Assembly: GCA_943355005.1 (NCBI GenBank)
Contig: CALRDV010000005.1
Coordinates: 4,999-68,998, forward strand
Source of the DNA: Patescibacteria group bacterium
GTDB taxonomy: Bacteria; Patescibacteriota; Microgenomatia; UBA1400; MFAQ01
Length of the DNA: 64,000 nt
Direction of reading: 5' to 3'
A program made the translations under genes and the position numbers. The notes under the pieces are model-generated. The model saw only the letters and a program-made list of their open reading frames with translations, was not told where the DNA came from and made no database searches. Shown here piece after piece: positions 58 through 58,086 of this stretch (position 1 is its first letter; each line of letters begins with the position of its first letter).

Positions 58-86
58 TGTCATTCCGGGCTTGACCCGGAATCCAG
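58..86 (+). repeat. Palindromic repeat, type 1 (GTCATTCCGGGCTTGACCCGGAATCCAG), intergenic, upstream of the S8 protease gene
   Basis: The sequence forms a perfect hairpin, ATTCCGGG-cttga-CCCGGAAT. The same 28-mer recurs at 14465, 41882 (one mismatch) and 56956. Confidence 0.8.
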
Positions 87-1552: not shown

Positions 1553-1591
1553 CGTCATTGCGAATCTCGTAATCGAGCTGTGGCAATCCAG
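1553..1591 (+). repeat. Palindromic repeat, type 2 (GTCATTGCGA-atctcgtaatcgag-cTGTGGCAATCCAGG), intergenic
   Basis: It shares the GTCATTGCGA 5' arm and the TGGCAATCCAG 3' arm with copies at 12138, 47052, 51984 and 56376. Its inner CTCGTAATCGAG hairpin resembles the copy at 52483. Confidence 0.8.
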
Positions 1592-10432: not shown

Positions 10433-11443
10433 ATGCCCAAAAAAAGAAACTCCATCATTAAAATAGAAGGTGATAGATTAATCTTCGAAAATTCGGATTT
10501 ATCCAAGTCTCTCAAATTTAATTATCCTGCGGATACAGTTAGAGATTTAGAAATACTTGATGCCGAGAAGTTGGAAGAGGGGATTCAAACTTTCATCACC
10601 AAGAATGAAATTTCTGCCGGTTCTCTGCTCTTGGTACTTTCCAAAAATATTACCTTCCAAAAATCAATTTCTTCTTCAAACATAGAACAAGAAAGAACAG
10701 CTTTCTTGGACAGTATACCTTTCGAAACCATCTCTTCCAAAATTTACGGGAAGAAGGATAGTCAGGTAATTGTCGCTACCAATCGAGATCTTGTTCAGAA
10801 ATTCCAATCAATATTTGTTCACCTAGGTTTTCAGGTTGAGGGTGTCGTTCCTGAAGAATTATTACCGGAAAATTACTCGGATCTGTACCTAAAAAAATCT
10901 ACATCCTATTCTCATCTCAGTATGGCAGGTAACTCCGGCTACAAAGAAACCAAAATCAATAAAATCGCCAAGAAAGAGATAGAAGCCAGCAAAAATCTGC
11001 GCTTACTCCTTACCCTCTTTGGATTTTCTTTCCTCGTCCTAGGTGGCGCCTACTACTACTCCCACCGAGAGTACGATTCGGCAAAAGTCTCAGAGGTTGT
11101 CATTCCCGACCTGATCGGGAATCCATCCGGAATACCTACAAACACATTATCCGACCCTTCCACCTTATCGGTCAAGATTTTATATCGTCCACAAGAGGAA
11201 TTATCAGCCAAGGAGTTGCAAAGTATTTTATGGTCAAGTGGTTTCAAGAATACCGATTTAGTTGCCACCACTTCCGCTGGCCTGAGCACAAATCTCTCTT
11301 TGTCGCCGAACCTTCCTCCAGACCTAATTCAAAAGATTCAAGGAGAACTCTCCAAAATCGACAAAAACTACACTGTTGACTCACTAGTTTCGGAAAATTC
11401 GGAAGTAACGATTTTACTTGCTAAATCAAGCAAAAAGCGATAA
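10433..11443 (+). CDS. Hypothetical pilus-assembly membrane protein (PilM/PilN-like by position)
   Basis: It has a single central TM helix (LRLLLTLFGFSFLVLGGAYYY) and sits between pseudopilin genes and the major pilin gene. I recognised no diagnostic motifs. Confidence 0.35.
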   Translation: MPKKRNSIIKIEGDRLIFENSDLSKSLKFNYPADTVRDLEILDAEKLEEGIQTFITKNEISAGSLLLVLSKNITFQKSISSSNIEQERTAFLDSIPFETISSKIYGKKDSQVIVATNRDLVQKFQSIFVHLGFQVEGVVPEELLPENYSDLYLKKSTSYSHLSMAGNSGYKETKINKIAKKEIEASKNLRLLLTLFGFSFLVLGGAYYYSHREYDSAKVSEVVIPDLIGNPSGIPTNTLSDPSTLSVKILYRPQEELSAKELQSILWSSGFKNTDLVATTSAGLSTNLSLSPNLPPDLIQKIQGELSKIDKNYTVDSLVSENSEVTILLAKSSKKR

Positions 11444-12137: not shown

Positions 12138-12169
12138 CGTCATTGCGAGGTACTCCGTGGCAATCCAGG
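12138..12169 (+). repeat. Palindromic repeat, type 2 (CGTCATTGCGAGGTACTCCGTGGCAATCCAGG), intergenic
   Basis: The 30-mer is identical to the copy inside the CDS at 51984-52014. Confidence 0.85.
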
Positions 12170-12257: not shown

Positions 12258-15200
12258 ATGACATCGAAATTTACGGGCGCCATCATCGTCGATTCCTCTT
12301 TTTGGGCAAAGCCCGGTGTCCAAAACAAATGGAAAAAAGCCCTAGATAAAATAGATACGGGATACCGCATTTTTGATAAGACAAAAAATAGGTTTGAAAT
12401 CAAGAAATCTCTCGCCAAATTCCTCAATGAAACTACAGCTCAAGAAGTTTTTCTAATAGACACCACACATACATCACCCTCCGACCTTGCCACCTTCTTC
12501 AAGTCAGCTCGTCACTCAGACAACCAGCTCTTCCTCCAATCCAATCCGTCCATCACTCCATTCCACAAAATCCTCTCCAAAAACCTGCACCACGGCCATG
12601 AAGTTTTAGCCTATTCACCTCTCAAACTTCTTCCCCAATCACTTTGCTACAATCTCAAACCCTCCGACCTCTCTTTTGGCACCGATCACGCCATCATCCA
12701 TCTCGCCACTCTGATGTCTCTCTCGATACAAAAAGTCGAGACCAAAATAATATCCAAGAAACGTCACCTACTTCAATCAAGTATTTCCCATCTATCCACC
12801 CGCCTTTCACCACCACGCCCGTATCACCTTCTGGGAGATAACTCGGACAATATGCTCGGCGCCGGCATGGTCCACAGAGGAAAAACTTTCATCACTCACA
12901 CCACTTTGAAAGAGCATCACAGCGCCACAAATACTTTTACTGTTCCTCAAGCTCTCACCGGACTATTTATCTTGCTCGTCCTCATCGCTGGTGTCCTCAC
13001 TTATCCCAGGAACACCATGATTGCTTTCACAGCCGTTCTCTCCACCATATATTTTATCGATGTTCTCTTTAATCTTTTCCTGGTGGGCAAAAGTCTTCAG
13101 ACACCTCCCGAATTGAAGTTCACCCCGGAAGAAGTGGCTAGTCTGAAAGACGAAGAATTACCGATTTATACCATCCTTGTTCCTTTATTCAGAGAAGCCC
13201 TCGTCCTCCCTGGTTTTGTCGAATCAATTTCCAAGATGAACTATCCTCAATCAAAATTGGATGTGCTTCTTCTCATGGAGGAGGATGATAAAGAAACTAT
13301 AGACGTCGCCAATTCTTTAAATCTTCCCGCCTTTATCCGCCAAATCATCGTGCCTCACTCCATGCCGAAGTCCAAGCCCAAGGCCTGTAACTACGGTTTA
13401 GCTTTTGCGAAAGGGGAGTACCTCGTAATTTACGACGCCGAAGATCATCCGGATGCAGATCAGCTGAAGAAAGCCATTTTAGGATTCCGTTCTTCACCTC
13501 CGGAAGTTGCCTGTCTCCAAGCCAAGCTAAATTATCACAACGCCAATCAGAATTTACTTACCCGTTTCTTTACCGCCGAGTATTCTTTGTGGTTCGATGT
13601 TGTCCTCCCCGGCATGCAGTCCATCAATACTTCCATTCCCTTAGGTGGCACTTCCAATCATTTCCGAGTCAAAGATATTATTAAGTTCCGAGGTTGGGAC
13701 GCTTTCAATGTTACCGAAGATGCTGACTTGGGTTCTCGCCTTTTCCGCGCCGGCTACCGCACTGCCATTGTTGATTCTGTCACTTTAGAAGAAGCCAATA
13801 GTAAAGTAGGAAACTGGATTCGTCAGCGTTCTCGCTGGATCAAGGGCTACATGCAGACCTATTTAGTTCACACTCGCGATTGGCGAACTTTTTACAAAGA
13901 ACAAGGCTTGCATGCTGTTATCTTTCAGCTCTCCGTCGGCGGCAAGATTGCCTTCATGCTCATCAATCCACTTTTGTGGGTTATGACCATTTCCTACTTT
14001 GCTCTATATAAATATGTTGGACCAACCATCGAGAGTTTTTACCCAACTCCCGTTTTCTACATGGCTGCGTTTTCTCTAGTCTTTGGAAACTTCCTTTTCC
14101 TCTACTACTACATGATTGGTGTCGCCAAGCACGGACACTGGACCCTGGTCAAATGGGTTTTCCTCGTTCCTCTTTACTGGTTACTTCTTAGTCGAGCTGC
14201 CCTCAAGGCACTTTATCAATTAGTCGTAAATCCACACTATTGGGAGAAGACTGATCACGGTTTACATTTTAGTTTCTTAGCCAAGAAACAAGCCAAAGCA
14301 GAACAGAAAGCCGCCCGCAAAAATAATCACAAAGTCTCTCTCTTCTTCCTCACCGCAATTCTTAATGTTTTAAACCTCCTCCAAAAACTCACTACTCCGA
14401 AACCATCCGTCATTGCGAGTTTCGGTAAACCGAACCGAAGCAATCTCACTCCATCAAACGACAATGTCATTCCGGGCTCGACCCGGAATCCAGAATCTGT
14501 CATTGCGAGCAAAGCGAAGCAATCTAGCTCAATAGCTTCGTCATTGCGAGATTCGTACTCGAACCGAAGCAATCTCATACCATCCAGACTCACATCATCA
14601 TTCAAAAAAGCCTACTACCACCCCCAAGCCGGTAGCATCATGCTCATCATCGCTTCCGTTCTCGGCAACTTCCTAAACTTCGTCTACAGCGCCTACCTCG
14701 GCAACACCATTAGTCTCGAGCAGTTCGGTCTCATCAGTCTTTTTGGCAGCTTTCTATATCTCACTCAAATTCCAACCAGTATTTTTGGAAGTTCCGTCAC
14801 CCGCGAAAGCGCTTTCTATTTTGGTAAGGAGAAAACTCAGCCCAAACATATTTGGAAACAATTTCGTCGCTGGGGAATCTACTTCTCTCTAATTCTTACA
14901 GTTATTTGGCTTCTTTCCATTCCATTTCTCCGGTCTATCTTCAAAGGCGATTCCTTTATTCCTTTTTACATATTCTCCCCGGTCATAATTCTCGGCTTAC
15001 TTTCTTCCGTTGATAGGGGGTTCTTGAATGGCACTCTTCGTTTCAAAATCCTCGCCACCGTCGGTATCACTGAGGCCGTCATTAAACTTCTGTTTACTAT
15101 CCTTTTGGTATCCATCAATCAGAAGCAGAATGTCTATCTCGCTCTACCTCTCTCCATGGCTTTCTCTTTCTTGCTTAGTTGGTTCTTCGCCAGCAGAGTT

Positions 15201-17928: not shown

Positions 17929-17930
17929 AT

Positions 17931-21708: not shown

Positions 21709-22439
21709 TGATATTAAATAGCGTAAGAAAATTGTTTTTTCCAGAGCCATATATCGACAATGGTAATTCTCTAAAAAATAAGGTGGTGATAATTACTGGT
21801 GCAAGACGAGGAATCGGACTTGCCACTGCTCAACTGCTTAGAAAAAAGGGTGCTAAGCTTGCGCTAATTTCTAGAAAATTTGAAAGTAAAAAATTAGATG
21901 GAGTTCTATATATTGAAGCCGACATATCTATTGAAGAGGAGTGCCGGAATGCAATTAGTCTGTGTATTAAAAACTATGGGAAAATTGACTGTTTAATTAA
22001 CAACGCCGGAACCTTTATTGACAAGTCGCTGGATCAAACGACTTTGGAGGAATTTAAGAAAATTTTTGAAAATAATGTGTTCGGAATGTTTAATATGACC
22101 AGACTTATTGTTCCATTTATGAAAAAACAAAAAATGGGAACTATCATAAACATTGGTTCAAAAATAAGTCATAATTCCAATGTCACGCCGAATAAAGTTA
22201 CTTATGCCACTAGCAAATATGCTGTAGAAGGATTTTCTTTTTCCTTAAACAAAGAATTGAAAAAATTCGGCATCAGAGTTTGTTGTTTAATGCCGGGAAC
22301 AGTTTCGACATTTATATCTAGACTAAGTAAAGATTATTTATCACCCTTTGAAGTTGCAAATTTAATTAAAATTATTATCGAATCAGAAAATATTGACTTT
22401 GAAAGTATAGTTTTTAAGTCGGTAAGACAAAACATATAA
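21705..22439 (+). CDS. Short-chain dehydrogenase/reductase (SDR)
   Basis: It has VVIITGARRGIGLATA (TGxxxGxG), NNAG, and YATSKYAVEGF (catalytic YxxxK). Confidence 0.85.
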   Translation: MMILNSVRKLFFPEPYIDNGNSLKNKVVIITGARRGIGLATAQLLRKKGAKLALISRKFESKKLDGVLYIEADISIEEECRNAISLCIKNYGKIDCLINNAGTFIDKSLDQTTLEEFKKIFENNVFGMFNMTRLIVPFMKKQKMGTIINIGSKISHNSNVTPNKVTYATSKYAVEGFSFSLNKELKKFGIRVCCLMPGTVSTFISRLSKDYLSPFEVANLIKIIIESENIDFESIVFKSVRQNI

Positions 22440-22444
22440 AGACT

Positions 22445-27428: not shown

Positions 27429-27461
27429 TGTCATTGCGAGTGTACTCACGTGGCAATCTAG
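27429..27461 (+). repeat. Palindromic repeat, type 2 (TGTCATTGCGAGTGTACTCACGTGGCAATCTAG), intergenic
   Basis: It has the same termini as the other type 2 copies. Confidence 0.8.
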
Positions 27462-38904: not shown

Positions 38905-39717
38905 ATGTCTGTTCGTTCTGTCATTCCCGACCTGATCGGGAATCTATTTAAATTCACTCCGATTATAATTGTCGCTTTTTTGGCTTTCATCTTCTCCCCA
39001 CTCGTCATGGCCAGCGCCAAATCAGACTACGATTATCAGTACGGTAAATATAGAACCAATTTTGCCGAGTTCGCTATTCTTAAGCAAGACTACTTAACAA
39101 CTCCAAGTCTGGACAATCAGCAAAAGGTTATGATCTCGGCCAAGCAGACTATCCTTAGTCGTGATCTAGCCAAAGCATCTCTAGATTGGTATCTTCTGGA
39201 TCTTATTGGCAGTTATCGCGTCGATTACGACCCCATTAAGCCCGTAATCACTGCTTTAAACAGCTCACGCCAATATTTCCTGGATCAATCATTTAAAGCC
39301 CAAAGTATAGTCACTGAAGCCGATTTAAAGAAATTTACCAACAATTATCTCGAGACTGTTCCTGTAAACGACGCCATGATTAAGTTCGGCATCTTAGCTC
39401 ACAAAATCGCTGAGTTGGTCAGAATCCAAATCGATTCCAAGACGGCATTGGAAACCATCATTCCCAAACTACCTTCACCTATGCCACAGAATCTTACCGA
39501 TCGTATCCAAGAGCTCAGAGATAAAGCCAAATTTATAGATGCGAAGATTGATACATTTGCCAATAATCTTCCCATGGCCGAGGCCGTGTCTGAGTCAGCT
39601 AATGATATTTTCTTCTCCTCCCGCGTAGAGATTTTGACTGAGATTCGTCTACTTCAATTAGATTGGATTAATCGTCTTATTGATATCGATATAAACTATG
39701 TCCAACCCCAAATTTGA
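38905..39717 (+). CDS. Hypothetical secreted/membrane-anchored protein
   Basis: An N-terminal hydrophobic segment is followed by an alpha-helical-looking domain. I recognised no motifs. Confidence 0.35.
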   Translation: MSVRSVIPDLIGNLFKFTPIIIVAFLAFIFSPLVMASAKSDYDYQYGKYRTNFAEFAILKQDYLTTPSLDNQQKVMISAKQTILSRDLAKASLDWYLLDLIGSYRVDYDPIKPVITALNSSRQYFLDQSFKAQSIVTEADLKKFTNNYLETVPVNDAMIKFGILAHKIAELVRIQIDSKTALETIIPKLPSPMPQNLTDRIQELRDKAKFIDAKIDTFANNLPMAEAVSESANDIFFSSRVEILTEIRLLQLDWINRLIDIDINYVQPQI

Positions 39718-41881: not shown

Positions 41882-41909
41882 TGTCATTCCGGGCTTGACT
41901 CGGAATCCA
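41882..41909 (+). repeat. Palindromic repeat, type 1 variant (TGTCATTCCGGGCTTGACTCGGAATCCA), intergenic
   Basis: It has one mismatch in the 3' stem arm relative to the consensus. Confidence 0.8.
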
Positions 41910-41923
41910 TCAAATCAATTCCA

Positions 41924-46324: not shown

Positions 46325-47041
46325 GTGAGTATGTCGCGACAAATAGATAAAATGTCTGTGTTTTTGCCGGCCTTCAACGAAGAAGCCAATCTCGAAAAGA
46401 CCGTCAAAAATGTAGTCGAAAATCTCAAAAAAAATGTATCGGAGTGGGAACTAGTCATCGTAAATGATGGTTCCAAGGATAATACAGGTAAAATCGCTGA
46501 TTCTCTAAGTAAAAATGAAAAAAGGATTTCCGTCATTCATCACAATCCAAACCGCGGTTACGGAGCCGCCTTCAAGAGTGGCTTGTATGCATGCAAATAT
46601 CCTTGGATTTCTTTTATCGACTCCGACGGCCAATTTGATTTCAAAGAAATTAACCGCTTTATCGATGCTCAGGATAGAACTAAGGCAGATATGGTAATTG
46701 GTTATTACTTGGGTAGAAAGGTATCTCTCTTACGTAAATTAAATTCGAAGGCTTGGCAGACTGTCGTCTTTATTCTGTTTGGGTTAAACGTTCATGATAT
46801 TGACTGTGGCTTTAAATTAATTTCCAAAAAGGTTATTGATAAGATTGAACCTCTGCAAAGCGAAAGAGGCGCATTTATAAGTAGTGAGTTTCTTATCAAG
46901 TCAAAAAAATCGGGATTTAAAATCGTGGAGATTGGGGTCCAGCATTATCCTAGAAAATTCGGAGAAGCTACCGGTGCTAAGCTAAATGTAATCATCCAAA
47001 GCTTCATCGACCTCTTCAAACTCTGGTACAAATTAAAATAA
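46325..47041 (+). CDS. Glycosyltransferase family 2 (dolichyl/polyprenyl-phosphate sugar synthase-like)
   Basis: It has MSVFLPAFNEEANLEKTV, VIVNDGSKDNT and IDSDGQFD (DxD). Confidence 0.8.
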   Translation: MSMSRQIDKMSVFLPAFNEEANLEKTVKNVVENLKKNVSEWELVIVNDGSKDNTGKIADSLSKNEKRISVIHHNPNRGYGAAFKSGLYACKYPWISFIDSDGQFDFKEINRFIDAQDRTKADMVIGYYLGRKVSLLRKLNSKAWQTVVFILFGLNVHDIDCGFKLISKKVIDKIEPLQSERGAFISSEFLIKSKKSGFKIVEIGVQHYPRKFGEATGAKLNVIIQSFIDLFKLWYKLK

Positions 47042-47051: not shown

Positions 47052-47088
47052 CGTCATTGCGAGGAGCAAAGCGAAGTGGCAATCCAGG
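47052..47088 (+). repeat. Palindromic repeat, type 2 (CGTCATTGCGAGGAGCAAAGCGAAGTGGCAATCCAGG), intergenic
   Basis: It has the same termini as the other type 2 copies. Its interior is similar to the copy at 56376. Confidence 0.8.
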
Positions 47089-47097: not shown

Positions 47098-48597
47098 ATG
47101 AAAATACTTCAAAACATAAAGGACTTCGCCAAAAACCACAGACTTGAGTTTACTTTAATTTCTATAATTCTTCTGCTCGCTCTCACTCTCCGTCTGTATC
47201 GAATAGGCGACTTCCTAACCTTTCTGGGTGACGAAGGTCGAGATGTCCGTATCGTCAGGGATTTGATTACGAGGGGAAATCTTGTCTTCATTGGACCTCA
47301 GACTAGTATCGGGAATATGTATCTCGGTCCACTCTACTACTATATGATGGCTCCAGCTCTCCTCCTCTCCGGTCTGAATCCTGTTGGGCCGGCCGTGATG
47401 AATGCGCTTCTGGGCACTTTCACTATCTGGCTAACTTGGTTTGTGGCTCGGAAATGGTTCGGTAAATCTGCCGCTATTATCGCCGCTGGTTTGTATGCCA
47501 TCTCACCGGTCGCCATTATTTATTCCAGAGCTTCCTGGAATCCAAACCCCATGCCATTCTTCGCCCTGCTTTGTGTTTGGGGAATTTATGAAGTCTGGCA
47601 GAACAAAAAATATTTCTGGCTTCCTATTGTCGGAGTTTCTTTTGCCTTCGCGCTTCAGATGCATTATCTAGGATTGTTGCTTATCCCTACGTTGGGACTT
47701 TTTTGGCTCTTTTCCTTCAATCAAATCAAAAAAAATGTAGTACAAAAAAAGATTTTTGTCCGTCAAACACTGATAGCCATTGGCCTTTTCTTGCTCCTAA
47801 TGTCTCCACTTTTGTTGTTTGATATCAAGCACAATTGGATGAACTTCAACGCCTTTAAAGCTTTTTTCTCCGATCGTCAAACTACGGTAAATCTAAACCC
47901 GGTTAAATCAGACAGGTTCCTTCCGGTGATGCTTATGACGGTTTCCGACATGTTTTTAGCTAGACAAACTTTATTTGCTCCAATTGGCTTGGTGCTCACC
48001 TTACTACTTTCTATCTGGATTTATTTAAAGTCAAAGTGGAAAACACCCCTAAAGGTTCTCTTCCTTTGGCTTGGCTTGGCTATCTTAGGTCTTAGTGTCT
48101 ACAAACAGCACGTCTATATTCACTATTTAGGTTTTATTTATCCCGCTCTTTATTTACTTTTGGGCGCCTTACTCGGATTCTTGTTCGAACAGAAATTAGT
48201 TTTGAAAATATTATCTATTATTTTAGTAATATTCCTTTTTAGCTATTCCCTTATTTACAGTCCGATAAAAGAAACCCCAAACCGTCAGCTCTGGCGGACA
48301 GAAGCCGCCGTCGATCTTATTATTAAGGAGTCGTCTGGCCAGCCTTTTAACTTCGGACTTATTGCCAAACAGAACTACGACGAATCCTATCGATATTTTT
48401 TGGAAAACAAAAAGGCACCTGCTTTCAGAGGAGAAGATAAAATTACCGATCAGCTCTTTGTAATTTGTGAAGATGGTGACTCATGTGTACCGGAAGGCAA
48501 CACTGCTTATCAAATCGCTAAGTTTGGTCAGGCTCATGTGGTCGGCACTTGGAATATTGACTATCTCAAAATTTATCGTTTAACGCACTTCAAATGA
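47098..48597 (+). CDS. GT-C family glycosyltransferase (ArnT/PMT-like, GT39/GT83-like)
   Basis: It has 11-13 TM helices and an early periplasmic loop with the acidic motif FLGDEGRD, which resembles the GT-C DE/DD loop. Confidence 0.55.
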   Translation: MKILQNIKDFAKNHRLEFTLISIILLLALTLRLYRIGDFLTFLGDEGRDVRIVRDLITRGNLVFIGPQTSIGNMYLGPLYYYMMAPALLLSGLNPVGPAVMNALLGTFTIWLTWFVARKWFGKSAAIIAAGLYAISPVAIIYSRASWNPNPMPFFALLCVWGIYEVWQNKKYFWLPIVGVSFAFALQMHYLGLLLIPTLGLFWLFSFNQIKKNVVQKKIFVRQTLIAIGLFLLLMSPLLLFDIKHNWMNFNAFKAFFSDRQTTVNLNPVKSDRFLPVMLMTVSDMFLARQTLFAPIGLVLTLLLSIWIYLKSKWKTPLKVLFLWLGLAILGLSVYKQHVYIHYLGFIYPALYLLLGALLGFLFEQKLVLKILSIILVIFLFSYSLIYSPIKETPNRQLWRTEAAVDLIIKESSGQPFNFGLIAKQNYDESYRYFLENKKAPAFRGEDKITDQLFVICEDGDSCVPEGNTAYQIAKFGQAHVVGTWNIDYLKIYRLTHFK

Positions 48598-49148: not shown

Positions 49149-49906
49149 CACCAAAACTTTCCATCGTCCTCAGTAACTACAACGAACACGCCAATCTCGA
49201 AAGGGGAGTCCTCGACGAAATGTATTCTTATCTTAAGACTGCCAAATATACTTGGGAAGTAATCATCAACGACGATGGTTCTACGGATGGCGGAGATAAA
49301 ATTATCGAAAACTTTTGTAAGAAACATCCCGGATTCAAAATGATTAGAGGTCAGCACGGGGGGAAGGCAGCCGGCATTTGGAATGGTATTAGGGAAGCCA
49401 AAGGGGAAGTTGTCCTCTTTACCGACATGGATCAGTCTACCCCTCTCAAAGAGGTCGAAAAACTATTGCCATGGTTTGATAAAGGCTTTGATGTTGTTTT
49501 TGGTTCCAGGGGTAAGATGAGAAAGAACTTCAATCTGATCCGCCAAGCTTCGTCCTGGTCCTTCAGAACTTTCAGAGGCATGATGCTTCTCCACGATGTA
49601 GTGGATACTCAGTGTGGTTTCAAAGCTCTCCGTACTCAAGTAGCCAAGAAAATTTTCCCAATGCTTTCGGTAATCAAAAGTAAAAAAACCGTCAGTAAGG
49701 GCTGGACTGTCTCCGCTTTCGATGTAGAGCTTTTATTTTTAGCCGAAAAGCTTGGAAACAGATTGAAAGAAGTCGACGTACTTTGGAAAAACGAAGACAC
49801 TTCTACCAGTAAGCAAAAAAGTTTTATCGGAGAGTCTGTAGACATGTTGCAGCAAATTATTCAGGTAAAAATTAACGACCTAAACGGCTTGTATGACCAA
49901 AAATAG
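49145..49906 (+). CDS. Glycosyltransferase family 2 (dolichyl-phosphate glucosyl/mannosyltransferase-like)
   Basis: It has LSIVLSNYNEHANL, IINDDGSTDG and FTDMDQS. Confidence 0.8.
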   Translation: MTPKLSIVLSNYNEHANLERGVLDEMYSYLKTAKYTWEVIINDDGSTDGGDKIIENFCKKHPGFKMIRGQHGGKAAGIWNGIREAKGEVVLFTDMDQSTPLKEVEKLLPWFDKGFDVVFGSRGKMRKNFNLIRQASSWSFRTFRGMMLLHDVVDTQCGFKALRTQVAKKIFPMLSVIKSKKTVSKGWTVSAFDVELLFLAEKLGNRLKEVDVLWKNEDTSTSKQKSFIGESVDMLQQIIQVKINDLNGLYDQK

Positions 49907-51395
49907 ACTTGTTTGGCTTATTGTTCTGGCCTTCACCACTCTTGTATTATTTTTATTTTTTCGTCTTTACTCCTTAAACAAAATCCCTGTTTTTGTAGAT
50001 GAAGCCATATATGTCCGTTGGTCTCAAGTTATGAGGACGGAGCCAACACTCAGGTTTTTGCCTTTATCGGATGGTAAGCAGCCACTATTTATGTGGTTGA
50101 CCATGCCCGCCCTCAAATTTATTTCAGATCCTCTTGTCGCTGGCCGGACGATTTCAGTACTGGCGGGATTTGGATCTCTGATTGGTGTTGGGATTCTTGC
50201 CTTCGTCATCTTTGCCAATCCATTTATTGCCTTATTCTCGTCGCTTATTTATGCCATCGTCCCTTTCACTATGTTCTTCGACCGTATGGCTTTGGCGGAC
50301 AGCCTTCTGGCGATGTTTGGTGTCTGGTCTTTGATTTTTGCGGTAAAGTTTGCCAAAACTCTCAGTACCGAATACGCCATTTATCTTGGTTTTGCCATCG
50401 GAGGAGGACTGCTTACAAAGTCTCCGGCTATGATTTTTTATATCTGGTCACTTCTCACAGTCATTTTTTTCTTGGATCGGTCAAAAATAGATTTTAATAG
50501 CATCGGTAAATTTATTTGGGGAGTTTTCTTAGTCGTAGTAATATCTCAAGTGATGTATGGCGTTCTCAGATTGGGTGTCGGCTTCCAGATGATAGGCTCC
50601 AGAAATCAGGATTATGTTTATTCCATCAAGGAAGTGTTGAGTCACCCATTTTTGCCATTTATCGCAAACATAGAAACCACTGCGAACTGGCTTTTCTTGT
50701 TACTTACTCCCACTGTTCTGATTTTGGGAGTCCTCGGCTATTTAAATTCCCAAACCAGACGATCTTTTATTTTTCTTCTCTTGGTGTCTCTCTTACCACT
50801 TTTGTTCCAAGCGTCTATCGCCAAAGTCTATACCACTCGTTATATTCTTTTTGCCGTATTACCGCTTTTGCCTTTGGCCGGACTTGGTCTTCATTGGTTG
50901 TTTAGTCGCAAAGGGTTACTTATTAAGTCATCGATAATATTATTTTTATCCGTACCGATTATCATTACTTTTGTCTATCTGTTTAATCCTTCTGCTGCAC
51001 CCATGACTAGAGATATGAGTACCGGATATTTGGGTGAATGGACAGCGGGCACGGGTCAGAGAGAGGTTGCAGAGTATTTACTAAACGAAGAGGCCAAAGG
51101 AAACAAAATCGTGGTCTTTACCGAGGGAACCTTTGGGACTCTTCCGGATGGTTTACAAATCTATACCGAGGGTCACAAAAACATCACCATTGTGGGATCC
51201 ACTCCCAATATTTTTGAAATTCCTGAGGGTTTATTAAATACCAGCAAAGACAATCAAAGATATTATGTTTTAAATGCCTCAAGGAATCATCTGCCTGCCT
51301 CGGAAATGGCAAAACTCGAGCTAATCAAAGAATACCCCAAATTACCAAGACCGGACGGATCGCGCGAGGCTCTTCTCTTCTTCCGCCTGAAATAA
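49893..51395 (+). CDS. GT-C family membrane glycosyltransferase (ArnT-like)
   Basis: It has 12 or more TM helices, an FVDEAIY-like first loop, and a C-terminal soluble domain. Confidence 0.5.
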   Translation: MTKNRLVWLIVLAFTTLVLFLFFRLYSLNKIPVFVDEAIYVRWSQVMRTEPTLRFLPLSDGKQPLFMWLTMPALKFISDPLVAGRTISVLAGFGSLIGVGILAFVIFANPFIALFSSLIYAIVPFTMFFDRMALADSLLAMFGVWSLIFAVKFAKTLSTEYAIYLGFAIGGGLLTKSPAMIFYIWSLLTVIFFLDRSKIDFNSIGKFIWGVFLVVVISQVMYGVLRLGVGFQMIGSRNQDYVYSIKEVLSHPFLPFIANIETTANWLFLLLTPTVLILGVLGYLNSQTRRSFIFLLLVSLLPLLFQASIAKVYTTRYILFAVLPLLPLAGLGLHWLFSRKGLLIKSSIILFLSVPIIITFVYLFNPSAAPMTRDMSTGYLGEWTAGTGQREVAEYLLNEEAKGNKIVVFTEGTFGTLPDGLQIYTEGHKNITIVGSTPNIFEIPEGLLNTSKDNQRYYVLNASRNHLPASEMAKLELIKEYPKLPRPDGSREALLFFRLK

Positions 51396-51424: not shown

Positions 51425-53269
51425 ATGCGTTACTTTTTTCAGATCATTTCAACTATCGCCAAATTCGTTTCTCGCTACCGCATAGAATTTTTACTCTTAC
51501 TTCTTGTCATTCCCGCAATTAGCGATGTTTTTAAAGAAGGTTTTATGCCTATGCATGATGATCTTCAAGTTCTCAGGTTAGTTGAGGTCCACAAGTGTAT
51601 TTTGGATGGTCAGATACCTTGCCGATGGGTTCCGGATGCCGGTTTTGGCTACGGATACCCTCTAATGCAATTTTACCCTCCCATGCCTTATTACCCCATG
51701 GAGCTCATGGTTTTACTGGGGTTTGGATTTTTCTTCCCGGTTAAAGTCATGTTTGCTTTAGCTTTTGTTCTCAGTGCCCTCGGTATGTATTTGCTGGGGA
51801 AGGAGTTTTTTGGAAAATGGGGTGGCATCCTAGCCTCGGTGTTATACGTCTATTCTCCTTATCATTCTGTCGACGTCTATGTCCGTGGTGCTATGAACGA
51901 AGCTTGGGGGATGGTCTGGTTCCCGTTCGTCCTCCTCTACATCTACAGACTTGTCTCCCGCCAAGGCGGGACTCACACCGCCCCGTCATTGCGAGGTACT
52001 CCGTGGCAATCCAGTTTAGCAAAAATTAAATTTCAAGTTAGTTCGGATTTTATTTACCTCAGTATCGCCATAGCTCTTCAGCTTACTTCCCACAATGTTA
52101 TGACTCTCGTATTTGCCCCTACGGCCATTATTTGGGCATTATTCTGGATGTGGAAGCTAAAATCATTTGACAAGATAAAAGACCTCTTCTTCTCTGGCTT
52201 ATTCGCTTTAGGTCTTTCTGCTTTTTTCTTTATTCCTGTCGTGTTGGAGCAGAAATTTGTGCACGTAGACTCTATGACAAGTGGCTATTTTAATTATTTA
52301 GCCCATTTTGCCGACATAAAACAACTTTTTTGGACTAGATTCTGGGGCTATGGTGGTTCTACTTGGGGGCCGGAAGATGGCATGTCTTTCTCTGTCGGTC
52401 ATTTTCAGTGGATCGGCGTTATCCTCGCCGGCACCGTTGCCTCATTAAGACTCTACCGCCTCAAATTTTACAAAAAAAGCTCCGTCATTGCGAGTCTCGT
52501 AGTCGAGCCGAAGCAATCTCAATCCACCAAATCATCCTCATTAAACCTCATGATCCTTTTGACCATCGCTTTTGGTTTTGGTTATGCCTTCCTCACCCAC
52601 AGCCGATCCAGTTTTATATGGGAGAGACTTCCTGTCTTGCAATACGCTCAATTCCCATGGCGCTTGGTCGCTCTAATCGTTTTTTACTTTTCTTTTGCTA
52701 CCGGTTATTTAGCTACCGTCACTCTGCCAAAAATTTTCAAAACGGTTGCCCTTACTACACTTATTGTTAGTATCATTTTATTCAATCTTCCCTTTTTCAA
52801 ATTCGAACGCCATGTCAGAGTGACATTTCAAGAAAAATTGTCCGGACTTTCTTGGGAAAATCAGGTCACTGGAGGTATCTTTGATTATCTCCCGAGGACA
52901 GCTTCCAGACCTCCAGGAGATCCGGCTTTCACTATTCCCATATACATCGAAGGTCAGGGTGGCATTCTCAACTACCGTTCCGGGTCAAATTGGATTACTT
53001 TCGATGCTTATGTTTCTACAGACACTTCCAAAGTTATGATACCTATGTTTACTTTCCAAGGAATAAAAACCAAGGTGGATTCCAAAAAAGTGATTACCGA
53101 AATGGATCCTGACTTAGGCAGAGTTATTTTTAGTCTTGATAAGGGACTTCATCACGTCGAAGCCAAGATTGGCTATACCAAAGTCAGACTTATTTCCGAT
53201 CTATTAACTCTCTTTTCATTCATTCTTTTAATAAAACTACTTCGCGATGATCGAAAACACACCTCCTGA
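51425..53269 (+). CDS. Large polytopic membrane protein (GT-C/YfhO-like) containing two in-frame palindromic-repeat insertions
   Basis: It has about 13 TM helices and a C-terminal beta-rich soluble domain. The repeats at 51984-52014 and 52483-52520 translate to SLRGTPWQSS and SVIASLVVEPKQSQS. Confidence 0.5.
   Translation: MRYFFQIISTIAKFVSRYRIEFLLLLLVIPAISDVFKEGFMPMHDDLQVLRLVEVHKCILDGQIPCRWVPDAGFGYGYPLMQFYPPMPYYPMELMVLLGFGFFFPVKVMFALAFVLSALGMYLLGKEFFGKWGGILASVLYVYSPYHSVDVYVRGAMNEAWGMVWFPFVLLYIYRLVSRQGGTHTAPSLRGTPWQSSLAKIKFQVSSDFIYLSIAIALQLTSHNVMTLVFAPTAIIWALFWMWKLKSFDKIKDLFFSGLFALGLSAFFFIPVVLEQKFVHVDSMTSGYFNYLAHFADIKQLFWTRFWGYGGSTWGPEDGMSFSVGHFQWIGVILAGTVASLRLYRLKFYKKSSVIASLVVEPKQSQSTKSSSLNLMILLTIAFGFGYAFLTHSRSSFIWERLPVLQYAQFPWRLVALIVFYFSFATGYLATVTLPKIFKTVALTTLIVSIILFNLPFFKFERHVRVTFQEKLSGLSWENQVTGGIFDYLPRTASRPPGDPAFTIPIYIEGQGGILNYRSGSNWITFDAYVSTDTSKVMIPMFTFQGIKTKVDSKKVITEMDPDLGRVIFSLDKGLHHVEAKIGYTKVRLISDLLTLFSFILLIKLLRDDRKHTS
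51984..52014 (+). repeat. Palindromic repeat, type 2, inserted in frame in a CDS (a 30-mer identical to the intergenic copy at 12138)
   Basis: The sequence is CGTCATTGCGAGGTACTCCGTGGCAATCCAG. Confidence 0.85.
52483..52520 (+). repeat. Palindromic repeat, type 2, inserted in frame in a CDS
   Basis: The sequence is CGTCATTGCGAGTCTCGTAGTCGAGCCGAAGCAATCTC, and its inner hairpin resembles the copy at 1553. Confidence 0.85.
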
Positions 53270-54725
53270 CGCCCCATCGGTACTTGAAGTCCAAGAAGTA
53301 AAAAGACGGAGTATTTCCGGTGTCCTAGCTCTCATATCTCGTACTTTCATCATTCAAATTATCTCCTTTGTTGCCACCCTTGCTCTTACCATTTTTCTGG
53401 ACCCAAACACTTACGGAATCTTTTATCTTGTTTCTTCGGTCGTCAACTTTATGGCATATTTTTCCGACGTCGGTTTGGCCGCAGCACTAATTCAAAAAAA
53501 GGAAGCTATTACCAAGGAGGATCTCTCCACTACTTTTACTATTCAACAAATATTGGTTCTATCTCTGCTTACCATCTTGTTTGTCTTGTCTCCGATAATT
53601 CAAACTCAGTATCAAATTGATCAGTCAGGGATGTATCTACTTTATGCCATGGGTGTTTCTCTTTTCTTGAGTTCGCTAAAGACAATACCTTCCATCATGT
53701 TGGAACGGGAAATCAAATTCAATAAACTAATTCTTCCCCAAGTTCTGGAAACTCTTGCTTTCAATTTTGTCGCCGTCTTCTTTGCGTGGAAGGGTTTTGG
53801 AGTCACTGCTTTTACTTTTGCTGTTCTCGCAAGGGGAGTTGTCGGTCTGATTGCTTTATATATTGTCTACCCATGGAAGCCAATTTTCGGCATCAATCGC
53901 TCCTCGCTTTCTCATTTACTAAAGTTTGGTTTACCATACCAAGTAAATACATTTTTAGCTGTATTGAAAGATGATGGTATGACGATTATTCTGACCAGAA
54001 TAATTGGAACACAGGGACTGGGCTATATTGGTTGGGCCTCCCGGTGGGCCGGTTTACCTCTAAGAATTGTGATGGATAACTTGACTAGAGTTTCCTTCCC
54101 AACTTTTGCGAGACTCCAGCACGACAAAGAGAGATTGGCTAAAGCCGTCGAGATTAGTCTTAAATATATGTGTCTTTTAACTTTTCCGATTCTTGCCGGG
54201 ATGGGTTTCCTGGCTTTGCCCATGACCCACTTGATTCCACGGTACGCCAAATGGCTTCCGGCCATTATTCCTCTTTACCTATATCTGTACAATTCTGCTT
54301 GGGCCAGCATTAGCACCAGTCTGACAAATCTACTAAATGCTACCGGTCATATAAAATCTACTTTCAAACTCATGCTTATGTGGACAGGTCTCACTTGGGC
54401 CATTATGCCAATATTGTCGATTAAATTTGGGTATATGGGAGTTGCTTTTGCTACCGGAATTATTGCCACTTCTTCCATAGTCACCATTATTATGGCCAAA
54501 CAACATGTCAACTTTAGTATGATAAATATAGTTAGAACTCCTCTTCTCGGATTACTTCCCATGATCTTCTGGCTCTACTTGTCAGTCGGCTCTATCGGTT
54601 CATACACTACCTTGGTCGGCATCATCATTACTTCTGCTATCATTTATTTTGGTTCAATATATATTTTGGAAGGCAAATTATTTTTTACGGATACGCTTAG
54701 TTACTTCAAGATCAAACATGTTTAG
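53247..54725 (+). CDS. Polysaccharide biosynthesis flippase (MOP superfamily, Wzx-like)
   Basis: It has 12-14 TM helices. The N-terminal MOP-type helices carry Arg/Lys (ISRTFIIQIISFVATLALT), and the size of 492 aa fits. Confidence 0.65.
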   Translation: MIENTPPDAPSVLEVQEVKRRSISGVLALISRTFIIQIISFVATLALTIFLDPNTYGIFYLVSSVVNFMAYFSDVGLAAALIQKKEAITKEDLSTTFTIQQILVLSLLTILFVLSPIIQTQYQIDQSGMYLLYAMGVSLFLSSLKTIPSIMLEREIKFNKLILPQVLETLAFNFVAVFFAWKGFGVTAFTFAVLARGVVGLIALYIVYPWKPIFGINRSSLSHLLKFGLPYQVNTFLAVLKDDGMTIILTRIIGTQGLGYIGWASRWAGLPLRIVMDNLTRVSFPTFARLQHDKERLAKAVEISLKYMCLLTFPILAGMGFLALPMTHLIPRYAKWLPAIIPLYLYLYNSAWASISTSLTNLLNATGHIKSTFKLMLMWTGLTWAIMPILSIKFGYMGVAFATGIIATSSIVTIIMAKQHVNFSMINIVRTPLLGLLPMIFWLYLSVGSIGSYTTLVGIIITSAIIYFGSIYILEGKLFFTDTLSYFKIKHV

Positions 54726-57700
54726 AAAACTATTAGTCATAGTCGCCATTATTTTCTTCAGTCTGCCCGGAAAAGCTTCAGCATTCAAGGCAGATACTTT
54801 TGTGACTTTTGCGAATCCTGTCCGCGGTCCGGAAAATTGGCAAGCGGGAAAGCAAGATCCCCTGGCTCTTCCGAAGTTTCAGTATGCCGAGTCTACTCCC
54901 TCCGCTTACCCCATCACCTGGCTACTTCGCTACGATGCAGTCCGAGATTCAACGATGTCCGCTTTTTTCAAGACTCTTTCGGAATCCGACAAGACTCAAA
55001 CCTTAGGTGCCTTTTTGGAGATTACTCCAAAGCTAGCGAGTGATTCGGATGTTTCATACCCTGCCGGCACTACTCCATTCAATGCCAATCGAATTTTCCT
55101 TTCCGGCTACACGACAGACCAAAGGACCAATCTGATCGACACCTTCATGGCAGCTTTCTTTGTGGAGTTCGGTTACTACCCTAAGTCGGTAGGGGCTTGG
55201 CACCTGGATAGTTATAGTCTGCAGTATCTTCAATCAAGATATTCCGTCCTTACTGCCATGAACTGCGACGACCAATACTCTACGGATAATTACCGGATTT
55301 GGGGAGGGTACTTGGGTAGTCCTTATTTCCCTGACAAAAACAATTCCTTAATTCCTGCGAACTCCTCTTCCAATCGAATCAATCTAGCTATGGTTCGCTG
55401 GGCTCAGCGTGATCTCTTTAACTTTTATGGATACCGATCCGAATCTTCTTACTCCGTACAGGTAAACGATTATCTGGCTCAAGGTCAAAACACCAAGTAT
55501 TTCGAAAAACTTTTAGGTCAATATTCTCAGAAGAAAATGAACGAGTTTACCTATATCAATATTGGTCTGGAAAACGACCACAGTCTACTTGAATACAAGT
55601 CCGAAATAAAAAATGTCTACAAACTACTCATTGCCAATCAGGGGACGTACAATCTCCGATTTACCTCTCTTTCTGATTTCGGTGATTGGTTCAAAGCTCG
55701 TTATCCGGAGAGCTCTCCGGCTTATTACTACGAGTCTACGGACCCACTCAGTGCCAGGTCGGGTAAGGTCTACTGGTACCAAAGTCCTTGGTATCGCATT
55801 GGCTTCAAATCCGAAAACGGTAGTACTAAAATCGTTGATTTCCGAGTCTACAATCGCAATGTTTTTGAGGATTATCTCCATACCCCAAATCAAGGTTTAA
55901 ATCTCTATCAGGAGATTCCGGCAGTCATCGATTCCGTCAAATGGCCAGGTACCGAAGCAGTATTGAGCTTTGATATGGAAAAAGCGACCTTTGTTTACTC
56001 GAAGCAGTGGGATTATTGGCAAGTTGCCTTTAAGTCCGGAAATCAAACTCTCACATTGTATCCAGACAAAATTTCCTTCACCGGTTTTTCGGCACCGTCA
56101 ATTTCATCCAAAGACGTAAAGTCTGTTTCCAAGAAAGACACTACCACCTGGGAACTAACTCCTTTCACGCCATTCCAAAAAACTTCCAAATTCACCTGGC
56201 TCTTCTGGCTAGTGGTTATCATTGCCGTGATCAAAATCATCAAAAGATTTAAAAATCCTCCTACTTCGTCATTGCGAGATTCGGTACACCGAACCGAAGC
56301 AATCTCGTCCACAAAAACATCCGTCATTGCGAGGATATTCCCGAAGCAATCTAGCTCATCAACCACTCCAGTATCCGTCATTGCGAGGAGCGAAGTGACG
56401 TGGCAATCCAGGAATTTACTTTTCGGCATTATCATCGCCCTCCTCGCCACCCTTACCGTCCTCCGAAACGGACTCCTTTATCCTTTTGGTATGGGTTTCT
56501 GGGGACCAAATGGACACGACGCCATTTTTCATCTTTCTCTAATCGAAAAATTCGCCACCAACCCCTTTAGTTTTGTTCACCCGCAAATTGCAGGGGAGAA
56601 GATAGCCAATTATCACTTTATTTTTGATTTTATTTCCGGACTTATTGTTAAACTCTTTGGAATATCATCTATTGATCTCTATTTTCGGATTTTCCCTGTC
56701 ATTGCCGGTATCGCTATCGTGTTTCTTCTTGATAAGCTTTTAAAACTCTGGAACTACAACGCTCAAGAAAGATTGCTAGCGATTTTTCTAGCCTTTTTAG
56801 CCGGTTCATTTGGCTTTATCTCCAAGCTCTTTGTGGGGCAGAGTATTTTTGCCGGGGAATCATCTTTCTGGTCCAATCAGTCTGTTTCCATATTTCTAAA
56901 CCCTCCCTACGCCCTCTCACTAATTGTGCTGTTAATTTTTTTACTTCAACTTTCTCGTCATTCCGGGCTTGACCCGGAATCCAGAAATTTGTCATTGCGA
57001 GGAGGTAATCCGACGTGGCAATCTACATCCATCAACCGCCATGATTATTTTCCCCTCATCCTCCTTGGCGCCCTCCTAGCCCAAACAAAAATTTACGCCT
57101 TTATCCTGCTTCTCGGCGCTCTACTATTTTCTAAGAGATACAAGCTCTTTATCGGAGTATTGGTATTAGGTGTTCTTATTTCTTTGCCCTTCACGACTCT
57201 TGGTGGACCGTCTCCGTTTCTTTTCTCACCTCTTTGGTTCCCCAGAAGTCTTTTTGCTTCTTTTGATCGCATGTATTGGCCACAGTTGGTTCAAGCTTGG
57301 CAAGCATACGAGGCTTCAGCGAATTTTGTAAAGTTGGCCTTAGTAAATCTTTTTGCTCTCGTAATTTTTCTTGTAGGCAATCTAGGAATGAGATGTTTTG
57401 GCTTATTGGAAGTAATTAAGACTAAGTCACAATCTGTCTCAGAATCTCTTGTCCGATGGATAATTCTTTTCGGCCTTATCACCCCCATACTTTTTGTCCA
57501 GAATATCAATCCCTGGAACACTATCCAGTTTATGTATTATTCTCTCTTTTTCTTAGCCCTCTTCACTGCCAAGTGGCTTTCAAAACAAAATATATTACTT
57601 TTTCTACCATTGGTATTTCTTGCCACTCTCACCTCCATTGGCACTCTCCAAGACTACATCGGTTTTTTCTCTGCTTCCAGAATTAGTTATTCCGAGCTCT

Positions 57701-58086
57701 TGGCTCTAGACAAATTAAGAGACCAATCAAAAGGAATTGTCCTGGCTCCGCTTTTTAATCAAGCCGAGTCAGGCGCAATTTTTGCCCCCAAGCCTTTGTA
57801 TTCTTATGTTTCCACGGCATATATCTCAGGATTGTCAGGTCAGCCTGAATATCTGGCAGACACAATAAATCTAGACATTACCGGCTTCAACTACACAGAC
57901 CAAGCTAGAGATATTCAACGCTTCTATGTGACAGGGGATAAGCAATGGGCTTTGGATTTCTTATCCAAGAACAAGATTAAATACGTCTACGAAACCCCAC
58001 TCCGGAAAATACATTTAGCTCCGGAGGATCTCAAACTCAAGAAAATCTTTGACTCAGGAGAAATAAACGTATATAAATTTAACTAA
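54718..58086 (+). CDS. Very large envelope protein: a periplasmic N-terminal domain of about 500 aa plus a polytopic membrane domain, containing five in-frame palindromic-repeat insertions
   Basis: The start was taken at MFRKLLVIVAIIFFSLPGKASA (a signal peptide), because the ORF start at 54649 overlaps the flippase gene. The repeats at 56267-56412 and 56956-57025 translate as SSLRDSVHRTEAISS, SVIARIFPKQSSS, SVIARSEVTWQSR, RHSGLDPESR and LSLRGGNPTWQST. Confidence 0.5.
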   Translation: MFRKLLVIVAIIFFSLPGKASAFKADTFVTFANPVRGPENWQAGKQDPLALPKFQYAESTPSAYPITWLLRYDAVRDSTMSAFFKTLSESDKTQTLGAFLEITPKLASDSDVSYPAGTTPFNANRIFLSGYTTDQRTNLIDTFMAAFFVEFGYYPKSVGAWHLDSYSLQYLQSRYSVLTAMNCDDQYSTDNYRIWGGYLGSPYFPDKNNSLIPANSSSNRINLAMVRWAQRDLFNFYGYRSESSYSVQVNDYLAQGQNTKYFEKLLGQYSQKKMNEFTYINIGLENDHSLLEYKSEIKNVYKLLIANQGTYNLRFTSLSDFGDWFKARYPESSPAYYYESTDPLSARSGKVYWYQSPWYRIGFKSENGSTKIVDFRVYNRNVFEDYLHTPNQGLNLYQEIPAVIDSVKWPGTEAVLSFDMEKATFVYSKQWDYWQVAFKSGNQTLTLYPDKISFTGFSAPSISSKDVKSVSKKDTTTWELTPFTPFQKTSKFTWLFWLVVIIAVIKIIKRFKNPPTSSLRDSVHRTEAISSTKTSVIARIFPKQSSSSTTPVSVIARSEVTWQSRNLLFGIIIALLATLTVLRNGLLYPFGMGFWGPNGHDAIFHLSLIEKFATNPFSFVHPQIAGEKIANYHFIFDFISGLIVKLFGISSIDLYFRIFPVIAGIAIVFLLDKLLKLWNYNAQERLLAIFLAFLAGSFGFISKLFVGQSIFAGESSFWSNQSVSIFLNPPYALSLIVLLIFLLQLSRHSGLDPESRNLSLRGGNPTWQSTSINRHDYFPLILLGALLAQTKIYAFILLLGALLFSKRYKLFIGVLVLGVLISLPFTTLGGPSPFLFSPLWFPRSLFASFDRMYWPQLVQAWQAYEASANFVKLALVNLFALVIFLVGNLGMRCFGLLEVIKTKSQSVSESLVRWIILFGLITPILFVQNINPWNTIQFMYYSLFFLALFTAKWLSKQNILLFLPLVFLATLTSIGTLQDYIGFFSASRISYSELLALDKLRDQSKGIVLAPLFNQAESGAIFAPKPLYSYVSTAYISGLSGQPEYLADTINLDITGFNYTDQARDIQRFYVTGDKQWALDFLSKNKIKYVYETPLRKIHLAPEDLKLKKIFDSGEINVYKFN
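56267..56412 (+). repeat. Three tandem type 2 palindromic repeats in frame within a CDS
   Basis: The copies lie at 56267-56306, 56322-56354 and 56376-56412. Confidence 0.85.
56956..57025 (+). repeat. Type 1 plus type 2 palindromic repeats in tandem, in frame within a CDS
   Basis: 56956-56984 is CGTCATTCCGGGCTTGACCCGGAATCCAG. 56990-57025 is GTCATTGCGAGGAGGTAATCCGACGTGGCAATCTAC. Confidence 0.85.

Follow-up and report, generated by a model that had tools for sequence, protein, structure and literature searches.

Introduction

Three described systems stand closest to the repeats analysed here, which lie in a 64,000-nt stretch of DNA (the window, meaning the whole stretch at its full length) from a 202-kb contig of a Collierbacteria genome, and which occur, among other places, inside a gene for a membrane glycosyltransferase of 614 amino acids (aa). 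The first is the class of CGTC-tagged repetitive extragenic palindromes (REPs), defined by a CGTC (or TGTC/CCTC) tag, an 8-9-bp stem starting A-T, a 4-5-nt loop and a tail that is mostly CCA; these families form mostly head-to-head dimers, with head-to-tail arrangements called 'negligible', they include documented in-frame intragenic copies, and for them neither a dedicated transposase nor an association with REP-associated tyrosine transposase (RAYT) genes was found (Di Nocera, De Gregorio and Rocco 2013, PMC3733652). In the same study CGTC-1 was equated with the repeat dRS3, and CGTC-1 and CGTC-4 with the Rickettsia palindromic elements (RPEs) RPE-6 and RPE-4. The second system is the Neisseria element NTS (CGTCATTCCCGCGMAVGCGGGAATCYRG), which encompasses dRS3 and is bound and cut as single-stranded DNA (ssDNA) by SsnA, a GIY-YIG nuclease of ~95 aa whose gene is typically flanked by the repeat (Chenal et al. 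2025, PMC11893778, where wider 'Ssn-related motifs', SRMs, are covered too). Three nucleotides 5' of the NTS palindrome are critical for cleavage and the C that follows it for binding; the nuclease residues mutated in that work were Y6, Y17 and E64, and SsnA does not interact with RNA (PMC11893778). The third is the set of Rickettsia RPEs, palindromic repeats lying in frame in many unrelated and apparently functional genes (Ogata et al. 2000, 2002, as related in PMC10969869 and PMC3733652).

From its sequence we take the element of the window to be a lineage-specific variant of one known class, comprising CGTC REPs, NTS/SRM and RPE-4/-6, and the phenomenon would thus be largely explained already. 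We consider it likely that the two repeat segments of the glycosyltransferase gene, together with a third and decayed one, are CGTC-tagged REP hairpin copies that were inserted into the gene, that are subject to recognition of the Ssn type, and that were filtered for their position in loops.

Results

An oriented family of hairpin repeats

With 10 kb of upstream flank from the same contig added to the window, the analysis covered ~74 kb of the genome in all. When oriented, the element follows the consensus 5'-(C/T)GTCATT-palindrome-AATC(C/T)NN, spans 27-51 nt without terminal inverted repeats of the insertion sequence (IS) type, and falls into type A (GTCATTGCGAG...GCAATC; search pattern GTCATTGCGAR-N(3-33)-GCAATC) and type C (GTCATTCC...GGAATC; search pattern GTCATTCC-N(6-30)-GGAATC). 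The window contains 13 copies of type A, all 13 on the + strand, and six + strand copies of type C, with chance expectations of 0.00 and 0.02, respectively; in this genome a stretch of 64 kb holds ~20 copies. The 19 good copies are thus all on the + strand, like almost all genes of the window, and so are five of five further copies in the upstream 10 kb. Wherever copies are arrayed in the window they stand head to tail in a single orientation (14408-14577; 56267-57026), and ~50% of copies are intragenic and translated in frame.

The anatomy of the element is constant: an unpaired (C/T)GTC tag precedes a palindrome ATT...AAT, which is followed at once by a C and then by a short CYR tail. The tag stands directly 5' of ATT in 19/19 good window copies, GTC-ATT...AAT-C is present in every copy of the window, and the 3' tails read CCAG, CTAG, CTCA, CCAT and similar. 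As DNA, type C folds into a perfect 8-bp stem with a 5-nt loop (z ~-3), while type A has an outer 5-bp stem ATTGC/GCAAT, an internal loop and a variable inner stem of 4-6 bp. Among 170 distinct type A cores from all loci, 85% fold better than their shuffled counterparts (Wilcoxon p = 7e-23), which indicates that the sequence varies while the hairpin is kept.

These properties align the family with the described systems in different respects. The termini CGTCATT...AATCYRG are identical to those of NTS/dRS3, and an oriented hairpin whose palindrome is preceded by GTC and followed by C, a high copy number and the clustering of copies are shared as well; the stem sequences are unlike, the 5-bp outer stem, internal loop and variable inner hairpin of type A set it apart from NTS, and about half of the copies here are translated, all of them co-oriented with genes and head to tail, in a host from the Candidate Phyla Radiation (CPR). 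With CGTC REPs the repeats have in common the CGTC/TGTC tag, the A-T start of the stem, the CCA-like tail, the placement near the 3' ends of open reading frames (ORFs), the in-frame intragenic copies and, for type C, the 8-bp stem with 5-nt loop. They differ in being exclusively head to tail, a head-to-head pair being seen only in one related locus (L026) and in unrelated metagenome loci, and Patescibacteria are not among the phyla listed in PMC3733652. The Rickettsia repeats offer a parallel for in-frame inserts in host genes that keep their conserved residues and have insert-free orthologues, again in a reduced-genome, host-dependent bacterium, and RPE-4 and RPE-6 are themselves CGTC repeats. 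However, classical RPE-1 is ~100-150 bp long in the accounts cited above, against 27-51 nt here, the inserts described here are concentrated in the membrane proteins of an envelope-glycosylation cluster, at their cytoplasmic loops and the linkers between their domains, and the same loops have been hit repeatedly in sister lineages.

Three repeat-derived segments in a membrane glycosyltransferase gene

The 31-mer CGTCATTGCGAGGTACTCCGTGGCAATCCAG occurs exactly twice in the window, once between genes (12138-12168) and once inside the 614-aa ORF 51425-53269 (51984-52014, site 1), and none of 100 shuffles gave any match. The identity halts at the borders of the element, where the two copies differ in the preceding base (t versus c) and in the following base (g versus t). 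An earlier, sequence-only reading had noticed this pair and the intergenic position of one member, giving the identity as 30 nt where it is 31. As that reading also stated, both copies in the gene are translated in frame, as P187-SLRGTPWQSS197 at site 1 and S353-VIASLVVEPKQSQS at site 2. It counted two elements in the gene, and to these we add a third, a degenerate hairpin at 51952-51974 (stem of 6-7 bp, TCCCGCC/GGCGGGA, CTC tail; DNA fold -6.1 kcal/mol, z -2.5), which aligns at the same codon with intact GTCATTCCCGACCTG...GGGAATC elements in the related loci L001, L003, L004 and L014. Although a repeat had been recognised there, its membership in a CGTC-tagged REP/NTS-like family, its strict orientation and the copies in neighbouring genes had been missed.

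The host protein has 1969 homologues, the closest of which are named Candidatus Collierbacteria, and a Pfam PMT_2 match of 26.3 bits (cut-off 26.1) that ends at residue 180, just before site 1. The AlphaFold2 (AF2) model has a predicted template modelling score (pTM) of 0.82 and retrieves AglB, ArnT and STT3 (probability 1.00), and also DPY19 and AftD, in Foldseek; on this modelled structure we assign the protein to the GT-C glycosyltransferases. All family-invariant residues are kept, including H44-D45-D46.

To place the inserts relative to the membrane, 12 transmembrane (TM) helices were assigned with guidance from the AF2 model, in place of a high-threshold hydropathy scan that missed weakly hydrophobic helices, and the loop with H44-D45-D46 was set outside by GT-C convention. 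Loops on the 'in' side are short and variable with 20 K+R vs 6 D+E, and those on the 'out' side are conserved with 10 K+R vs 15 D+E. The GT-C fold convention, the helix count and this positive-inside charge bias together predict that both insert loops are cytoplasmic, which overturns the periplasmic placement first proposed for the site-1 loop. The helices around site 1 span residues 165-178 and 207-222, those around site 2 residues 326-356 and 365-391, and the segments with a predicted local distance difference test (pLDDT) score <50 (residues 182-203 and 359-365) lie between modelled helices, which agrees with the original view that the inserts fall between TM helices and not within them. 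Large indels of the gene family are all confined to three poorly conserved loops, while the conserved loops with H44-D45-D46, YSPYHSVD..RGA.NE.WG and GYFNYLAH are free of them; the earlier idea of selection against disruptive insertions is plausible in this light. Copies have been retained solely at places where the 10-30 residues that they add belong to disordered, non-conserved linkers on the cytoplasmic side of membrane proteins. A head-to-head CGTC-type pair, sense plus antisense, is carried in frame by a distant orthologue of the gene (L026:11150-11270) in a third cytoplasmic loop, between TM10 and TM11.

Recurrent occupation of the same loops in orthologues

The history of the two sites was followed in an alignment of 27 orthologues, with a tree built without the variable columns. 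At both sites most orthologues, 556-585 aa in length, show a short loop rich in K/R (RLITKEKSKTNF and RLKKQKTTS), in agreement with the first description of the segments as insertions, and all outgroups are empty at both; judged by these sequences, the ancestral state of both sites is empty. Ordinary ancestral loop or low-complexity sequence with a chance likeness to the intergenic copy, an idea in whose favour only the short match length speaks, thus has a probability close to nil, given the shuffles, the lack of such segments in most orthologues and in all outgroups, and the presence of the same element at 20 places in the window.

Site 1 is occupied at three separate places of the tree and site 2 at four or more, requiring at least three gain or loss events at site 1 and at least four at site 2, and both are recurrent hot spots. 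Close sisters differ in occupancy (P0005 vs P0010, P0009 vs P0015), and at site 2 a difference of 51 nt separates the sister loci L006 and L008, with empty and filled alleles whose flanks are replaced. The element in a given loop also differs by lineage, among type C HSRPDRES, nested SRQGG, type A SLRG..WQS, VIARSEATWQS and VIASLVPETKQS. At the level of DNA the site-2 repeat shares 35/38 bases with L004/L003 and 33/37 with L008, and the site-1 repeat 24/25 aligned bases with L014, where the whole gene is 69% identical; overall the repeats are 89-96% identical across orthologues, against 69-74% for the whole gene (window vs L004, L008 and L014). Repeat DNA that is so much better conserved than the gene around it suggests that the DNA, and not the peptide, is what constraint or homogenisation acts on.

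Gains, losses and conversions at the two sites are not fully separable, and a history without ongoing mobility has to be weighed, in which a few old insertions were homogenised by conversion or recombination, between copies and between co-occurring strains, and were lost by hairpin-prone deletion, so that the hot spots are scars. Such a history would fit the site-2 5' flank TTTTACAAAAAA (FYKK), which is common to the window, L001-L004 and L008 and suggests one old event followed by losses; different cores at the same position in different lineages fit it too, and the end of the 12138/51984 identity exactly at the element ends is what copy-to-copy conversion would give. Against this, type C in L014, L010 and L011 and type A elsewhere sit at slightly different codons in separate clades, which requires independent arrivals, and close relatives have anywhere between 0 and 13 repeats in ~21 kb. 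We regard this history as possible but on the whole doubtful.

In-frame repeats in other genes, frame use and polarity

The same behaviour is seen in the 1145-aa ORF 54649-58086, where five repeats occupy two hot spots, each immediately following a TM helix; most orthologues lack them, and several sister lineages hold other repeat-derived peptides there. Four repeats also supply ~55 residues of the linker between the glycosyltransferase family 2 (GT2) and flippase-like modules in ORF 12258-17039, a single 1593-aa ORF that combines GT2, flippase-like and GT4 modules. Most GT2 homologues (715-790 aa) stop near this linker, and the window's own 1593-aa ORF is not among the database matches; the partial proteins P0123 and P0124 cover both sides of the linker, so the fusion may be genuine.

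Across all Collierbacteria loci 41 intragenic copies are sense, and the sole antisense match is weak (24164-24185). This match, also the only minus-strand type C match of the window (GTCATTCCAAACTAACGGAATC, 5-bp stem), lies within ORF 23943-25514 and could represent either an antisense copy in decay or coincidence (whole-pattern expectation 0.02). The reading frame is equally restricted, with type A translated only as VIAS... or SLRG... and in none of 24 intragenic copies in the HCE frame (binomial p = 1e-4, a value that overstates independence because many of the 24 copies are orthologous). The used frames are mostly stop-free and Cys-free with mean net charges of +1.1 and +1.7, while the unused sense frame is acidic (mean -0.8), Cys-rich and interrupted by stops in 4/12 copies, and the antisense frames contain more stops. 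Such frame use would be expected if selection tolerated only basic, harmless linkers in cytoplasmic loops. One antisense frame, however, is equally benign, so that such a filter alone does not explain the lack of antisense copies.

Where the Collierbacteria loci have minus-strand copies, these stand only beside minus-strand genes; six of them are good copies, four of which border Ssn-like GIY-YIG genes. Transcription-linked and replication-linked causes of the polarity are not separable, and the GC skew of the window mainly reflects coding composition. Among unrelated metagenome contigs the motif is common, often in inverted pairs, with 50 sense and 47 antisense among the matches listed; because these come mostly from high-GC organisms (locus GC 27-72%) in which stop-to-stop ORFs are unreliable, the scan shows only wide spread and frequent inverted pairs. 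The lack of a sense bias elsewhere makes the strict polarity a feature of this lineage.

Co-orientation would also follow if the repeats were mainly RNA elements, with sense hairpins stabilising or punctuating polycistronic mRNA, or pausing ribosomes after a TM helix. The 41 of 41 good intragenic copies in sense orientation agree with this, as do the intergenic copies, all downstream of or between co-oriented genes and often 5-20 nt past a stop codon, and the intragenic copies that directly follow a TM helix, as they often do. Yet strict polarity is not expected from RNA structure alone, since a palindrome folds into much the same hairpin whichever way it is read, and elsewhere the motif occurs in inverted pairs without sense bias. 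No T-run was seen 3' of the hairpins at the window copies, and an Rfam scan of the window gave no family match. In NTS the conserved single-stranded tag and tail serve in recognition by protein, and the NTS nuclease SsnA does not engage RNA (PMC11893778); an explanation centred on RNA is in our judgement unlikely.

Repeat-flanked GIY-YIG genes in related loci

Relatives were surveyed in 80 related loci from GTDB genomes (L-numbers), among which the repeats are concentrated in Collierbacteria. Five single-domain GIY-YIG ORFs of 95-118 aa (PF01541, E 1e-14 to 1e-17) were identified in the Collierbacteria loci, with repeats 8-50 nt from their ends, and such an ORF is present in 5/14 repeat-bearing loci vs 0/66 repeat-free ones (Fisher p = 8e-5). 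The closest solved structures are UPF0213 proteins (E 3e-4). The protein of L004 has Y7/Y18/E65, with the same spacing as Y6/Y17/E64 of SsnA, so that the relatives share with the NTS/Ssn system a repeat-flanked gene for a single-domain GIY-YIG protein of ~95 aa with the same Y-Y-E spacing. These genes occupy two alternative places, upstream of a minus-strand 371-aa gene or downstream of an ORF of ~1100 aa. Both positions are empty in the window, which marks the nuclease gene as variable; possibly it is a mobile cassette.

A repeat-flanked gene for the cognate enzyme is likewise known from classical GTAG REPs and their RAYTs, which further resemble the present system in being short extragenic palindromes with an unpaired tag and in hairpin recognition on ssDNA. 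Movement by a RAYT transposase, or an origin as IS-derived miniature inverted-repeat transposable elements, could be entertained for short dispersed palindromes that are partly clustered as in bacterial interspersed mosaic elements. The tag, though, is CGTC/TGTC and not GTAG, the typical inverted-pair layout of GTAG REPs differs from the one seen here, elements of 27-51 nt have no IS-type termini, CGTC repeats are not associated with RAYT genes (PMC3733652), and the repeat-flanked gene in the relatives encodes a predicted GIY-YIG nuclease and not an HUH Y1 transposase; such an origin is very improbable, although the window was not exhaustively scanned for transposases.

Feature coordinates and neighbouring sequence

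The features are collected in Table 1. The type C copy at the extreme 5' end of ORF 38905-39717 may lie upstream of the true start codon, and the array at 14408-14577 is the one read in frame as the linker of ORF 12258-17039.

Table 1. Repeat copies, host gene with its variable blocks, and GIY-YIG ORFs of related loci (positions refer to the window unless a locus is named).
Feature	Position	Strand	Remarks
Type C repeat GTCATTCCGGGCTTGACCCGGAATCCAG	59..86	+	intergenic
Type A repeat	1553..1591	+	intergenic
Type C repeat	11099..11126	+	in frame as VIPDLIGNP, after TM helix of ORF 10433-11443
Type A repeat, same as site-1 copy	12138..12168	+	intergenic, between ORF end at 12005 and next ORF start at 12258
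Array of 4 repeats, head to tail	14408..14577	+	type A 14409, type C 14466, type A 14499, type A 14540
Type A repeat	27429..27461	+	fills 45-nt spacer between two co-directional genes
Type C repeat	38920..38947	+	extreme 5' end of ORF 38905-39717
Type C repeat	41883..41910	+	intergenic, convergent genes on either side
Type A repeat	47052..47087	+	fills spacer between genes 46325-47041 and 47098-48597
Degenerate CGTC-type hairpin	51952..51974	+	TGTC-TCCCGCC-AA-GGCGGGA-CTC; encodes SRQGG
Type A repeat, site 1	51984..52014	+	read (P)SLRGTPWQSS; 31-nt identity with 12138-12168
Type A repeat, site 2	52483..52521	+	read SVIASLVVEPKQSQ in the 614-aa ORF
Array of 3 type A repeats, head to tail	56267..56411	+	in frame, ORF 54649-58086; absent from most orthologues
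Type C (56957) and type A (56991) repeats	56956..57026	+	in frame, ORF 54649-58086; second hot spot after TM helix
Host gene (ORF), predicted GT-C-fold membrane glycosyltransferase, 614 aa	51425..53269	+	PMT_2/GT39-like, ~12 TM
Site-1 variable block V177-S207	51953..52045	+	predicted cytoplasmic loop 2; ~23 codons extra vs repeat-free orthologues
Site-2 variable block K347-N374	52463..52546	+	predicted cytoplasmic loop 4; ~21 codons extra vs repeat-free orthologues
GIY-YIG ORF	L004:3113-3400		
GIY-YIG ORF	L011:~3164-3676		
GIY-YIG ORF	L012:3395-3688		
GIY-YIG ORF	L014:16682-17038	-	
GIY-YIG ORF	L020:15996-16289	-	

The gene with the three segments is the last of three PMT_2/GT-C paralogues within 6 kb (47098-48597, 49893-51395 and 51425-53269), and the only one of them with intragenic repeats. 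The paralogues are followed by a Wzx-like flippase (53247-54725) and then by the repeat-bearing 1145-aa multi-TM protein, for which there is no Pfam match.

Other traces of repeats or hairpins were noted between genes. A partial repeat head (GTCATTGCGGGG) without a 3' half is located at 3414-3424, 19 nt past the stop of ORF 2226-3395. At 12015-12060, GTCATTGC directly follows the stop at 12005 and precedes a strong terminator-like hairpin (AAAAAACCCGC-TTCG-GCGGGTTTTTT), which may be a repeat head joined to an intrinsic terminator, and another hairpin (CCTCTCCTTATTAAGGAGAGG) is found at ~12090-12110, upstream of the 12138 repeat. A tRNA search of the window returned none. GC skew is strongly negative (-0.19 to -0.24) at the regions with repeat arrays, 12000-16000 and 56000-58000, and the spacers of arrayed repeats are rich in C/A and poor in G. 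The interval 16000-24000 is a repeat-free, low-GC island (0.34-0.36 vs 0.40-0.46 elsewhere) with co-directional genes and may be a laterally acquired portion of the glycan cluster.

Discussion

Insertion of CGTC-tagged hairpins with recognition of the Ssn type and filtering for loops suggests the following course of events. In the Collierbacteria lineage the repeats have entered the narrow gaps between genes and, with the reading frame preserved, genes themselves. A hairpin of the coding strand would form when that strand is single-stranded, and a Ssn-type nuclease, supplied in trans, could recognise it; spread and homogenisation may have proceeded by ssDNA-based copying or gene conversion, and selection would then have cleared disruptive insertions so that the loop hot spots remain.

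Several observations weigh against this interpretation. Concerning the insertion events, the inserted blocks exceed the length of the repeat and their boundaries are fuzzy, a target-site duplication was sought at the empty and filled sites and none was recognisable, because those sites are too diverged, and an ancestral insertion with repeated deletion can also yield the pattern of presence and absence. As to the family, single type A hairpins are modestly stable as DNA (z -0.7 to -2.5, with one positive), and type A, including both in-gene copies, lacks the perfect stem of 8-9 bp that the four published CGTC families have. The published degenerate SRM pattern has no match in the window on either strand, so that family membership rests on the termini and the architecture. 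Concerning the enzyme, SsnA was shown to be a nuclease that restricts transformation and not a transposase (PMC11893778), the GIY-YIG assignment is drawn from PF01541 and the Y7/Y18/E65 spacing and not from membership of cd10448, and no GIY-YIG gene was found by regular expression and phmmer in the window and the upstream 10 kb (74 kb of the genome).

A more far-reaching scenario, which we put forward as a speculation of low probability, is that NTS-like hairpins in Collierbacteria switched to a mode that is head to tail and restricted to the coding strand, persisting on the strand that replication or transcription exposes as ssDNA. They would provide ready-made, positively charged disordered linkers that repeatedly remodel cytoplasmic loops and inter-domain linkers of envelope-glycosylation enzymes, and they would mark a surface-variation locus for Ssn control of natural transformation, as NTS do near the surface-antigen genes of Neisseria.

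For CGTC repeats we have not found a description of several features of this locus, namely the occurrence in the CPR, the two-tier type A hairpin, the head-to-tail and sense-only layout, the coding share of ~50% and the recurrent use of cytoplasmic loops. The locus links three literatures, on dRS3/NTS and Ssn in Neisseria, on CGTC REPs and on the protein-coding palindromes of Rickettsia, and extends them to the CPR. In the CPR this bears on the annotation of "hypothetical" insertions and fused ORFs, and the repeats both inflate and split profile matches, the PMT_2 match that halts at the insert being an example. Through its clean restriction to the sense orientation, the locus offers a way to test how CGTC repeats are generated or selected. 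The repeats make lineage-specific loops and could mark turnover at the level of strains, and if the link to Ssn is true, an NTS-like system would be concentrated in the envelope genes of CPR bacteria, organisms that rely on taking up DNA.

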